A stretch of DNA of 64,000 nucleotides from a virus: IMG/VR virus record IMGVR_UViG_3300040758_000214, positions 64,001-128,000 of that record; one strand, 5' to 3'. A model generated the notes under the pieces. The model saw only the letters and a list, made by a program, of their open reading frames with translations, ran no database searches and was not told the DNA's origin. Both the position numbers and the translations under genes were made by a program. Shown here piece by piece: positions 57,900-60,685 of this stretch (position 1 is its first letter; each line of letters opens with the position of its first letter).

Positions 57900-58649
57900 T
57901 TAAACACCATGAATATATGAAAATATCTTGGCACCAATTTCATCTTGAACTATTTCTTGACAATTTGCTTGTTGCCTTGCTTTCTTGATAGACATGATTA
58001 GTTTATCAAGTCTTCCAATTATCAGAGATTTCTCAGCTGGAGTTAACATTCCACTATATTTGGTAGTTTGCCATTTTCCAGTCGCCACTTGTTCTTCCCA
58101 TTTTTCAACCTGCGCTGGGTGTTTATCAGTGGGAGGAACTAAAACATGATGTTTGAAGGCTTTAGCCGTCTTTATAGTTTCTTCGGGATACTTTGTTTTA
58201 TAAACTCCTTTTCCAATGGTTGTATCTTCTTCCCATGAAATACCAGGAGCCAGAGTTGGAATAGCATCATACATCACTCTGAGCTCATTAAGTCTTGATT
58301 CCATGTTAAGCAAATATGTAGCAGGAGCATTATTGACTATAGCAATTCCATCAACAACAACATCTGCCACAGCCTGCTGGTTTGTTTTTTCTTTTTGAAG
58401 TAATGCATCAAAATATCTTCCAACTGTTTCTGATACATAGTCCAGTTTAGCATGAACTGTAGTGACTATTTCTCGATGCTCAGCTCCAATTACTCCTTGT
58501 TGATCTTCATCTTTAAACATTATGAGTAGCTTGTCATATCCACTGAAATGTTCAGGTTTCTTAAAGGTAGATGTTGCTTCTGCAACTAACTTGTCAGAAA
58601 CACCTTTCAAAGATCCTTCAACTGCAAGTAATTCATGTAATTTTCCCAT
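57900..58649 (-). CDS. Conserved coiled-coil protein (DUF7873-like)
   Basis: KLHELLAVE...PATYLL..E...IPTL...PTDKHPAQV...AR..AN. Confidence 0.7.
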   Translation of the reverse strand: MGKLHELLAVEGSLKGVSDKLVAEATSTFKKPEHFSGYDKLLIMFKDEDQQGVIGAEHREIVTTVHAKLDYVSETVGRYFDALLQKEKTNQQAVADVVVDGIAIVNNAPATYLLNMESRLNELRVMYDAIPTLAPGISWEEDTTIGKGVYKTKYPEETIKTAKAFKHHVLVPPTDKHPAQVEKWEEQVATGKWQTTKYSGMLTPAEKSLIIGRLDKLIMSIKKARQQANCQEIVQDEIGAKIFSYIHGV

Positions 58650-58860
58650 TTCACAATTCTCCCATTTGTATTAAATTTGAAGTTCTTATTTTATTTCTAT
58701 TATCGCAATTACTTTATCATCTACAATTTTTGTGTCAATAACTTTAATATCACGCGATGCATCAGTATTAAAAAATAAATTCAACGCTTTAACATTTTCA
58801 GCATTTGTTATCTCACGTTCTTTAATCATGATTCCTCCTTCTTTATTTGTAAATCAAAAA

Positions 58861-58937
58861 TGGTCCGGGTTACTGGATTTGAACCAATGGCCCTCTGCGC
58901 CCAAGGCAGATGCGCTACCAGACTGCGCTAAACCCGG
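58861..58937 (-). tRNA. tRNA-Pro(TGG), CCA encoded
   Basis: Full cloverleaf CCGGGTT/AACCCGG, anticodon arm TCTGC-CTTGGGC-GCAGA, TTCAAAT T loop. Confidence 0.93.
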
Positions 58938-58958
58938 ATAAATACTTAATTTTATCCC

Positions 58959-59284
58959 CACCCCTACCTTGGGAATTGGATCGTTTCATCAAAGTCCATG
59001 TGGGTATTCCAAGGACGGCTCCACCGAAATTGGCATCCCGGCTTCATTGCCTCCCCACTATCCTATAATGGATCATTCTGATGATTAGGGTATAGAATAT
59101 CAACCGGTCTCAATTTCTACTTTTCGACTAAGATGGTGGAGTCGAAATATTTACTACCCCGATTTGTCAACCCTTTTAGGTCGATGGCTGCCAATACCGG
59201 TCTATTGTCAAGGGTCTGACTTAGATCGACATTTGATCATGAGCTTTGCGCCGTTGTTACAAGGCACGCTCTGACGATGGGGTG
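58959..59284 (-). ncRNA. ~330-nt structured RNA containing a 23S rRNA L1-stalk (H76-H78) mimic at 59000-59065
   Basis: CACCCC/GGGGTG closing stem; TAGGATA-GTGGG-GA-GGCA-ATGAAG-CCGGGAT-GCCA-ATTTCGG-TGG-AGCC-GTCCTTGGAATA-CCCAC colinear with bacterial 23S ~2111-2178. Confidence 0.8.
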
Positions 59285-59377
59285 TAATTTAATCATACCC
59301 ACACAAGGACAATGATATGATTATAGAAATGAATGTTGAATTCCATGATCTAAACTTTAAAACCCTTCATTCTAAAA

Positions 59378-59391
59378 ATTAATATATATAG
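59378..59391 (-). promoter_or_regulatory. Candidate promoter CTATATATATTAAT upstream of L1-stalk RNA/tRNA-Pro
   Basis: Identical 14-mer at 3178-3191 (+). Confidence 0.45.
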
Positions 59392-59413
59392 CAACTCAAA
59401 CTATAATGGATTT

Positions 59414-59701
59414 TTACATCCACTGTTTTTTCTTCTTTGTACGTTTCCATCCTTTAATTCTTCGTTTAGAAACAAGTTCATCATCCCAAGCATTAGGAAG
59501 ATTAACATGTGATCTTCTCAATCTCAATTTAATTTTATATTCTTTACATTCTTCTAAAACATCAAACCATTTTTTTCTTTCTTGTGTAGTTTTAGGATGC
59601 CTCATGTAATGACAACAAGAATTATGATAATGACTAATTCCAGGGACTGGACCTCTTCTAAAGATAAACTTCAATCCTCTTCTTGTATAAAAAACTTTCA
59701 T
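59414..59701 (-). CDS. Small highly basic R/K/H/W-rich protein
   Basis: HPKTTQERK...RLRRSHVNLPNAWDD...GWKRTKKKKQW. Confidence 0.65.
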   Translation of the reverse strand: MKVFYTRRGLKFIFRRGPVPGISHYHNSCCHYMRHPKTTQERKKWFDVLEECKEYKIKLRLRRSHVNLPNAWDDELVSKRRIKGWKRTKKKKQWM

Positions 59702-59709
59702 CTTTAACC

Positions 59710-59755
59710 TCCATTAAGTATAATGAACTTAATGGAAGAATGTTGGTTTATACAT
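59710..59755 (-). promoter_or_regulatory. Leader peptide (MYKPTFFH) + RBS-sequestering hairpin
   Basis: 10-bp stem TCCATTAAGT/ACTTAATGGA overlaps GGAGG SD; leader stop lies in 5' arm. Confidence 0.55.
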
Positions 59756-59800
59756 ATTCAAATCTCCTATAGTTTATATTGTTCTAAAAATTTTTATTAT

Positions 59801-60034
59801 TTACTTATATAATGGAGTTCCATCATTACATCTCCAACTTCCATTTGCAATTAAAATTAAATCTATAATTGTCCCGATAAAAAACCATCCGCATGTCAGA
59901 AGATAGATAACACCAGACCCAAGTTTTCCGGTATATAATCTATGCAATCCTGCTATTCCAAAAAATCCAATAAAACAAAATACAAGAGCTAACCAAAAAA
60001 GTTTCTTACTTTCTATTACAGGTTGAAGTTCCAT
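59801..60034 (-). CDS. TM2-domain membrane protein
   Basis: GLHRLYTGK...GVIYLLTCG.F.IG.IIDLI. Confidence 0.88.
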   Translation of the reverse strand: MELQPVIESKKLFWLALVFCFIGFFGIAGLHRLYTGKLGSGVIYLLTCGWFFIGTIIDLILIANGSWRCNDGTPLYK

Positions 60035-60061
60035 TATTTAATTTCCTTTCTGTATAAAATA

Positions 60062-60137
60062 TGGTAGGGGATGTCTGACTCGGACAGACGTATGCCAGAT
60101 TCAAAATCTGGTGCGTTAACCACTTCGCCAATCCCCA
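60062..60137 (-). tRNA. tRNA-Gln(TTG), CCA encoded, atypical
   Basis: CCAGA-TTTTGAA-TCTGG anticodon arm; U1:U72 mismatch, A73, T loop TCCGAGT. Confidence 0.82.
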
Positions 60138-60145
60138 ATAAAAAT

Positions 60146-60266
60146 TTTGGCGTATTCTTATGTTCAGACTGAGAGCCGTTGTTGTCTATCCAAAGTACTG
60201 GAATCTTTATAAGACAGCTTCACCGCAATCTCTAGTAATAAGTAACCTGCATGTTTATACACCAAA
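60146..60266 (-). ncRNA. Candidate ~120-nt rod-like RNA between tRNA-Asn and tRNA-Gln
   Basis: TTTGGTGTAT/ATACGCCAAA closing stem; inner GAGA/TCTC, TGTCT/AGACA, TCCA/TGGA. Confidence 0.5.
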
Positions 60267-60271
60267 TCATG

Positions 60272-60343
60272 CTCCGGAGGAAAGATTCGAACTTCCGACC
60301 TGAGAGTTAACAGCTCCCGGCTCCACCACTGAGCTACTCCGGA
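60272..60343 (-). tRNA. tRNA-Asn(GTT), no encoded CCA
   Basis: TCCGGAG/CTCCGGA acceptor, GGGAG-CTGTTAA-CTCTC, TTCGAAT. Confidence 0.93.
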
Positions 60344-60349
60344 ATAATC

Positions 60350-60685
60350 TTACAAATATTTCATTGCTAAAACTACGGCTTCTGATATATAACCAATAAT
60401 TTTAGAAGCTAAACTTACATCTGAAATTATTACTTTAATGTTATCTTCTTCGATTTGAAGGGTTGACGCTTGTGCCTTTAAAGCAGCTGTAGCATTAACA
60501 AAATCAATATCATCTTGTATTGTCTGAGTATGTAAAAGTTGTGATAAATAGGAATCGAGTTGACTATATTCCATACTTATTTTCATTATAGCTACAGGAT
60601 CTGTTGAATTTCTTCCTGCTTGAATCAATAAACTTTGAGCTGATCTTATTGGTTCAATTATTTTTAATATATCTTGCTTTGCCAT
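60350..60685 (-). CDS. Helical partner of upstream lipoprotein
   Basis: 111-aa helical ORF adjacent to lipoprotein. Confidence 0.6.
   Translation of the reverse strand: MAKQDILKIIEPIRSAQSLLIQAGRNSTDPVAIMKISMEYSQLDSYLSQLLHTQTIQDDIDFVNATAALKAQASTLQIEEDNIKVIISDVSLASKIIGYISEAVVLAMKYL

Follow-up and report, generated by a model that had tools for sequence, protein, structure and literature searches.

The minus strand of a genome fragment from a large uncultured peat phage encodes, close to tRNA genes, an RNA that is, judged from its sequence and pairing, a free-standing and fold-preserving copy of the L1-stalk head of 23S rRNA (helices H76-H78). The element lies in a 64,000-nt stretch of DNA (the window) of a 143-kb IMG/VR phage record, which is 46% complete by CheckV and has a GC content of 28%. 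It is considered highly probable that the element is a functional L1-stalk RNA selected for its fold. The best explanation of its role, to which a probability of about 0.55 is given, is that it would act as an off-ribosome L1-stalk head, binding host uL1 and docking tRNA elbows, from a tRNA-linked transcript. So far the L1 stalk is familiar solely as a mobile element of the ribosome, one that passes deacylated tRNA on from the E site. A separate copy selected in unrelated large phages beside tRNA genes implies a job for the stalk head off the ribosome, and no current model of phage takeover or of translation has such a job. An earlier note on this DNA stated that no RNA class like this had been described, and this holds: Rfam 15 has no such family, and full-text searches of open-access papers gave no phage-encoded or free-standing L1-stalk RNA. 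A phage-encoded uL1 protein has been described (PMC13157829).

The core of the element (59065 to 59000, minus strand) is present exactly as quoted in the earlier note and aligns without gaps to positions 2113-2178 of E. coli 23S rRNA. The reference was rrlB of MG1655, with which the E. coli sequence given in the earlier note agrees. Of the 66 positions 49 are identical, namely 32 of the 36 that are unpaired and 17 of the 30 in paired columns. Six pairs show double-compensatory changes, one G-C pair is changed to G-U and none is broken, and all 15 H77/H78 pairs are kept; the near-identical loops and compensatory helix changes first reported are thereby confirmed. The similarity ends at the core. 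In a blastn search against a small rRNA database the core gave E ~3e-10 and the other ~420 nt of the locus no match. Sensitive blastn of the 483-nt intergenic region (59420-58938) against E. coli 16S, 23S and 5S rRNA and two other 23S sequences matched only the 63-nt core, and the same rRNA set revealed no other rRNA-like stretch in the whole 143-kb phage record. The element is therefore located outside any rRNA operon, as had been proposed, and its flanks do not continue as host 23S rRNA, the feature that had been named as the sign of a chimeric assembly or a pseudogene.

The LSU model RF02541 gave zero matches in the phage record, even at E up to 10. True rRNA controls (L003, L155 and L157) scored 894-2404 bits and contain the conserved upstream sequence GAAAGACCCCGUGAACCUUUACUAUAGCUU, wholly or as far as the contig extends. 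The local match to H76-H78 that had been expected from this model is consequently missing for the window's module, but it exists for some of the related modules; where loci of the family are reported at all, coverage is limited to model positions ~2125-2216. Among 120 real 23S sequences, sampled from a looser pattern search, the closest shares 57/66 positions with the core. Six of the nine differences from this nearest type form three double-compensatory pairs, and the remaining three are positions that are variable in real 23S rRNA too. Neither the H77 variant GUGGG/CCCAC nor the U-A closing pair of H78 occurs in any of the 120 sequences, and the window's own H77 variant had 0 matches in a metagenome scan. 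An exact search for the H78 arm in 185,579 species-representative genomes also returned 0 matches, and no donor was identified.

The core forms part of a complete module, with the following elements:

58987-59083, minus strand: complete stand-alone L1-stalk module of 97 nt, delimited by sequence, pairing table and covariance models
59083-59079 (CAUCA), internal loop, 59072-59068 (UCCAU), paired with 58999-58995 (AUGGA) and 58991-58987 (UGAUG), minus strand: H76-like stem
59000-59065, minus strand: 66-nt core, comprising the H77-H78 head with the junction and T-loop strands (E. coli 2113-2178)
59059-59067, minus strand: linker UA (U59067, A59066) followed by UAGGAUA; A59066 equals position 2112, a platform residue
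59064-59059, minus strand: T-loop 1 (2114-2119), mapped from PMC3664808
59058-59054 (GUGGG) paired with 59004-59000 (CCCAC), minus strand: H77
59051-59017, minus strand: H78 (3 + 7 bp)
59005-59016, minus strand: loop B of 12 nt, GUCCUUGGAAUA, with T-loop 2 (2167-2171) at 59011-59007
59009, minus strand: G at position 2169, platform partner of A59066, mapped from PMC3664808

The flanks of the core carry no 23S sequence and nevertheless rebuild the junction exactly. The order UCCAU-UA-UAGGAUA ... CCCAC-AUGGA equals G2110-UG-UAGGAUA ... CCACC-C2179 of E. coli, with a 2-nt linker and direct continuity of H77 and H76. The H76-like stem suggested for UCCAU/AUGGA forms next to the junction and is extended by CAUCA/UGAUG across the internal loop. 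Based on the positions of the T-loops and of the tRNA-elbow platform 2112:2169 given by Lehmann et al. 2013 (PMC3664808), the window's module contains UAGGAUA and UUGGAAUA, has the six T-loop core residues (AG..A, UG..A) and places A59066 opposite G59009 in the platform. The full 12-nt loop B and both T-loops are present, so the interdigitated T-loops are kept, unlike in the uL1 mRNA operators, a distinction already drawn in the earlier note. The contacts of uL1 are the H77 duplex, the linker, the base of H78 and loop B (Hu et al. 2017, PMC5689012), and all four elements are present in the module, in which the linker is GA.

Homologs of the module were collected by pattern searches. A lineage-neutral pattern with every stem position set to N gave 19 places in IMG/VR; one (L003) is a full 23S rRNA, three (L135, L146 and L149) are rRNA-like pieces at contig ends, excluded as possible chimeras, and the rest are isolated modules. 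A second scan with variable H78 length added L152 and L153, and a metagenome scan added L156 plus two true rRNA operons used as controls. In total there are 14 further distinct isolated modules; viral contigs of 43-412 kb carry 13 of them, and the remaining one is in a metagenome contig of 35 kb; the search for homologs in large-phage contigs that had been recommended thus gave both relatives and H77/H78 covariation. Covariance model R1 detects exactly one copy per module-bearing record, including a single match of 90 bits in the phage record of the window. Model R2, from whose training the window's module was left out, scores it at 84.6 bits (E 3e-27, 58994-59073) as the sole match in 64 kb. 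Genuine 23S stalks score 83-95 bits with R2, the same range as the window's module.

The pairing of the module is preserved through extensive sequence change. In an ungapped alignment of 13 sequences and 80 columns (A1), H77 occurs in 12 sequence variants, is 100% paired and shows double changes at 5/5 pairs. Pairing is 100% in the outer part of H78 and 96.7% in the inner part, where 7/7 pairs show double changes. Covariation reaches a score of 0.841, whereas shuffles give 0.217 (0/500) and slid registers <=0.21. Since the search patterns left the stems unconstrained, they did not impose the pairing. They did fix some loop letters; UAG before GAUA and the motif UUG.AAUA were free in the first scan, yet they are invariant. 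UAGGAUA is found unchanged in 13/13 phage modules, and the loop B motif UUG.AAUA, the six T-loop core residues, the GA linker and the first and third base pairs of H78 are likewise invariant, with loop B at full length. The 2112:2169 platform is always pairable, being A:G, G:A, G:G or A:A in nine of the 13 modules and U:A in four; the A:G type occurs in 10/81 distinct real 23S sequences. As both the uL1 contacts and the T-loop platform are conserved, the sequence leaves both ligands of the ribosomal stalk head possible.

Shared identity among the phage modules is 38% in stem columns and 84% in loops, versus 85% and 91%, respectively, in real 23S rRNA from many phyla. There are 12 H77 variants in 13 phage modules, compared with six in 81 distinct real 23S sequences. 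In L136, L139 and L147, which form a clade, two tRNA-Arg genes enclose the module at an identical position, and its stems differ among the members by compensatory changes. The recurrence of the family in phages and its heavy covariation argue for a stalk-head copy selected for structure rather than a decaying rRNA scrap, in agreement with the original interpretation.

Two members of the family differ in form. In L152 (2486-2600, plus strand) and L153 (471-585, plus strand) H78 is one nucleotide shorter with an ACAA loop, and the 3' strand of H76 is followed by a U-run (UUUCCUUUUUUC). The U-run resembles an intrinsic terminator, and in these records the module may be a self-contained RNA of ~90 nt. 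Another module, with stems of gammaproteobacterial type (GGUGG/CCACC), stands at the end of IMGVR_UViG_3300000032_000059 (L002:1-90, minus strand; 42.8 kb, CheckV 90% complete). Upstream of it are a protein gene and a terminator-like hairpin instead of 23S sequence; either it was captured recently or the assembly broke at a repeat shared with host rRNA.

When the locus and three variants of the module were compared by blastn with GenBank phages, the only matches were to tRNA-Pro or to short rRNA records with a wrong label, and no cultured phage with the module was detected. By BLAST and by covariance model the RNA is missing from relatives identified via the neighbouring DUF7873 protein (L004) or the ATPase (L005-L007); the three relatives closest to this phage, which include a complete 277-kb genome, lack it. 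A uL1 gene (Ribosomal_L1) is absent from the window's record and from all 14 module-bearing records, so any uL1 partner would be that of the host.

The stretch occurs in several peat and wetland metagenomes from different studies. Contigs from three peat runs other than the source span the module and its phage flanks with zero differences (X3, 58895-59173; X4, 58800-59158; X5, 58991-59147), and those of X3 and X4 continue into tRNA-Pro. These data bear on the reading that the element is a functionless piece of host 23S rRNA, acquired by illegitimate recombination or produced by an assembly chimera. Some viral contigs do end in rRNA pieces (L135, L146 and L149), and the absence of the element from the three closest relatives is in line with a chance acquisition. 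On the other hand, the independent assemblies place the module inside phage sequence, the flanks are not 23S, the H78 arm is unmatched among species-representative genomes and every substitution preserves the structure. The module is moreover a GC island (49%) within a genome of 28% GC, and a covarying family exists. The inert-scrap reading is effectively refuted.

Several other records with 23S-like matches were encountered. The 6469-bp record L146 (IMGVR_UViG_3300049694_000004) has matches to a tobamovirus IRES and the UPD pseudoknot together with a 23S-like end, and is probably a chimera in which plant-virus sequence is joined to rRNA sequence from an organelle or a bacterium. A circular 2750-bp RefSeq 'E. 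coli plasmid' (NZ_AP027888.1, L001) is annotated wholly as 23S rRNA; its L1 stalk (GAGCC ... GGAGGC, GGGAUAC) is unlike that of E. coli, and a fragment of foreign rRNA was probably assembled here as a plasmid. Seven phage-named records of 2-7 kb with 23S-like L1-stalk matches (PQ800148.1, OR850160.1, OR844775.1, OR845186.1, OR845267.1, OR850889.1 and KM209255.1) are probably host rRNA.

The genomic neighbourhood links the module to tRNA genes, the closest of which is:

58861-58937, minus strand: tRNA-Pro(UGG), called by ARAGORN and scoring 65.4 bits with the Rfam tRNA model

This gene lies 21 nt past 58959, the downstream limit of the RNA drawn in the earlier note, which had correctly reported that distance, and begins 62 nt past the end of the core. 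Genes for tRNA-Gln and tRNA-Asn are placed 1-1.3 kb upstream on the same strand. The other neighbours are a 47-aa ORF, a DUF7873 protein and a 95-aa ORF; there is no r-protein gene near the window's module. Ten of the 15 distinct modules are situated within tRNA regions, on the tRNA strand, and five have no tRNA in the fetched locus. In L136, L139, L147 and the window the end of the core is 49-62 nt upstream of a tRNA.

DUF7873 (PF25283) is the only neighbour protein common to different lineages, in two of them, and no functional lead for the neighbour proteins was obtained from the protein atlas. The window's copy (57900-58649, minus strand) is ~350 nt downstream of the module. A homolog with 39% identity in an unrelated phage ends ~25 nt upstream of the module there. 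The family is present in 4/20 records (including L144:6595-7344, minus strand, and L140:55-624, plus strand), one of the four being without the module, and the close relatives of the window's phage lack both DUF7873 and the module. The protein and the module may constitute a co-transferred cassette.

Further tRNA-like sequences were observed, although fusion to a T-arm or tRNA-like element is not general among the phage modules. Perfect T-arm hairpins are located 190-210 nt downstream of the modules in L142 (6200-6240, plus strand) and L144 (minus strand, ~190 nt). These hairpins, GGAUG-UUCGAAU-CGUCC and ACCGG-UUCAAAU-CCGGU, receive no tRNA call from ARAGORN or Rfam and may be degenerate tRNA-like elements. 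In the closest relative (L005:2270-2360, plus strand) two T-arm-like fragments, GGUUCGAUCCC and GGUUCAAUUCC, also uncalled as tRNAs, have tRNA-Arg on one side and a 105-aa ORF on the other and occupy the gap equivalent to that of the window's RNA. Outside the window, at 1980-2066 and 129672-129750 of the phage record, ARAGORN calls a tRNA-Cys (ACA) and a tRNA-Asn (AUU) with unusual anticodons, which may be miscalls or tRNA-like RNAs.

The remaining features of the locus surround the module:

59312-59339, minus strand: weak sigma-70-like site TCAACA-16-TATCAT (9/12 match), a candidate start only
59087-59305, minus strand: 5' structured domain, MFE -62.8 kcal/mol, z = -3.31, with the centroid identical to the MFE fold; phage-specific
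58938-58986, minus strand: 49-nt linker from the module to tRNA-Pro, defined by sequence and containing AUUCCCAAGG and GGGGUG

The region 59305-58938 is a GC island of 44% in the 28% GC genome, with 37-48% within the island versus 15-33% in the flanks. Its 5' 219 nt form a closed domain of several helices (z = -3.3). The multi-stem RNA of ~330 nt envisaged in the earlier note is made plausible by the GC island and by this 5' fold, but only the ~97-nt module is common to the phages. No homolog of the 5' domain was found in the relatives or in the other module-bearing records, so the conserved unit is the ~97-nt module only. Other parts of that model are not supported. The closure by CACCCC/GGGGUG is not seen in the MFE fold, which closes the 5' domain by GGGUAUG/UAUACCC. 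The promoter scan gives nothing at 59378 on the minus strand; the only candidate is the weak site at 59339-59312, and sigma-70-like sites in the region are no more numerous than in shuffles. No terminator was detected between the module and tRNA-Pro by the promoter and terminator scan. The switch by alternative pairing of AUUCCCAAGG is rejected: its complementarity to T-loop 2 does not exceed that of shuffled flanks (p = 0.28), and it has no counterpart in the other modules, so that the pairing is neither above chance nor a feature of the family.

The element is best explained as an off-ribosome stalk head with two ligands. It would be transcribed, probably, as part of a structured precursor of ~370 nt that ends at tRNA-Pro, and cleavage by RNase P at the 5' end of tRNA-Pro would free the upstream RNA. 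The free RNA would then fold like the rRNA original and display the two binding surfaces of the stalk. The first would be the uL1 site, made up of H77, the GA linker, the base of H78 and loop B. The second would be the double T-loop platform (2112:2169), which would stack on the G19:C56 elbow of a tRNA. Recruitment of host uL1 would yield a small L1-stalk particle able to grip the elbows of tRNAs or pre-tRNAs, and in this manner the phage could hold, shield or sort tRNAs off the ribosome. The data establish the sequence, its fold-preserving evolution, the phage family, the genomic context and the non-rRNA status of the element, while transcription, processing, the binding of uL1 and tRNA and the benefit to the phage are proposed.

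Some observations go against this scheme. The platform is U:A in 4/13 modules, and strict elbow stacking may consequently not be the common function; the Y:R platform type is rare in 23S rRNA (3/591) and absent from the platforms of RNase P and T-box RNAs (PMC3664808). The base identities of H77, strongly conserved in 23S rRNA, are free in the phage copies and so recognition by uL1 could be relaxed. The absence of the module from the three closest relatives indicates that it is dispensable. In addition, a universal elbow binder could not separate phage from host tRNAs, the abundance of tRNA would make stoichiometry a problem, and the clustering with tRNA genes may reflect merely the common transcription and processing of RNA genes.

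Narrower roles have to be weighed against this one; a uL1 sponge and an RNase decoy, like a tRNA-elbow binder, were already candidates in the earlier note. The RNA could be purely a high-affinity decoy that titrates free host uL1, with no involvement of tRNA; the result would be a derepressed or disturbed uL1-autoregulated L11 (rplKA) operon, or new 50S subunits starved of uL1. The presence of the four uL1-contact elements, the invariance of the GA linker and H78 base, and the 14 module-bearing records without their own uL1, which would make the host protein the target, are all in favor of such a sponge. The full-length loop B gives rRNA a higher affinity for uL1 than the mRNA operator (PMC5689012), and retention of the T-loops could therefore serve affinity alone. 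However, the H77 sequence that is conserved in rRNA varies freely in the modules, a sponge would not account for the link to tRNA arrays and its value to the phage is not evident; this role seems rather unlikely.

A cis-acting role, limited to the RNA's own transcript, is quite improbable. The module would dock the elbow of the neighbouring pre-tRNA or recruit uL1 as a chaperone, guiding folding, processing or stability of the precursor, and would not be a stable trans-acting RNA. In four lineages a tRNA does follow the core on the same strand at a distance of 49-62 nt, the module and tRNA-Pro have no terminator between them, and PMC1920258 attributes strong RNA chaperone activity to uL1. Many modules, however, are more than 500 nt away from the nearest tRNA or have none in their locus, the partner tRNA varies with the lineage (Pro, Arg), and the H76 stem followed by a U-run in L152 and L153 suggests a self-contained small RNA. 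Conservation of the entire head, and not just of the uL1 operator core, would also suit a decoy for some other factor that recognises the stalk, such as a host defence enzyme or toxin, or an E-site factor (an ABCF protein or EF-P). Little probability is assigned to this decoy role, since no conserved protein partner is found near the modules and, to our knowledge, no toxin or defence system directed at the L1 stalk exists.

Compared with the general proposal of an off-ribosome stalk head with two ligands, its most specific version is tentative and rather doubtful: that phages make a free L1-stalk particle, consisting of the RNA and host uL1, that clamps tRNA elbows away from the ribosome. If true, the particle could protect tRNAs and pre-tRNAs, or sort them, when host defence is directed at tRNA, or hold deacylated tRNA so that the stringent response stays untriggered. 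The element in general may mark a further front in the conflict of phage and host, over the homeostasis of tRNA or ribosomal proteins. The RNA of ~100 nt is easily synthesised and has two testable candidate ligands, uL1 and the tRNA elbow, and the family supplies a series of naturally occurring compensatory variants of a classic rRNA domain. Adding it to RNA databases would stop such loci being misread as rRNA fragments or contamination.

The module was finally compared with known RNA systems. At gathering score and at E up to 10, Rfam identifies only tRNAs over the locus. RNase P RNA, GOLLD, ROOL and group I introns were rejected as identities, with no family match at gathering score or E up to 10 (58800-60500), as was the T-box riboswitch (RF00230), with no Rfam match at E up to 10 and no alternative-pairing partner above chance. 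GOLLD and ROOL are structured ncRNAs of phages and prophages that cluster with tRNAs and have no reported homology to rRNA. The closest system is the ribosomal L1 stalk itself (23S H76-H78, E. coli ~2093-2196; RF02541 ~2125-2216), with which the module shares the three-helix junction, the linker lengths, the double T-loop, the loop B sequences and the GA linker. The phage version differs from it in being outside rRNA, with a short and unrelated H76 and non-23S flanks, in having freely evolving stems and a U:A platform in 4/13 cases, and in being encoded among phage tRNA genes.

The uL1 mRNA operators (the rplKA or L11-operon leader and the Methanococcus L1 mRNA site) are likewise copies of the uL1 site off the ribosome, and consist of an H77-equivalent helix, a linker and the base of an H78-like helix (PMC5689012). 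In the operators J2-1 and loop B are much shorter and the interdigitated T-loops are missing, whereas the phage module keeps the full head. The operators are located in the 5' UTR of r-protein genes and act in cis, whereas the module lies in tRNA arrays with no r-protein gene nearby. Identity with a uL1 mRNA operator was rejected on these grounds, as the record has no Ribosomal_L1 gene and the element possesses the full loop B and T-loops rather than a minimal site. T-box and RNase P RNAs share with the module the same six-residue T-loop core and a purine-rich stacking platform (PMC3664808). The phage module has no specifier loop, antiterminator or T-box sequence, nor the conserved regions of RNase P, and it is a homolog of the rRNA version, including H78, and not a mere analog.
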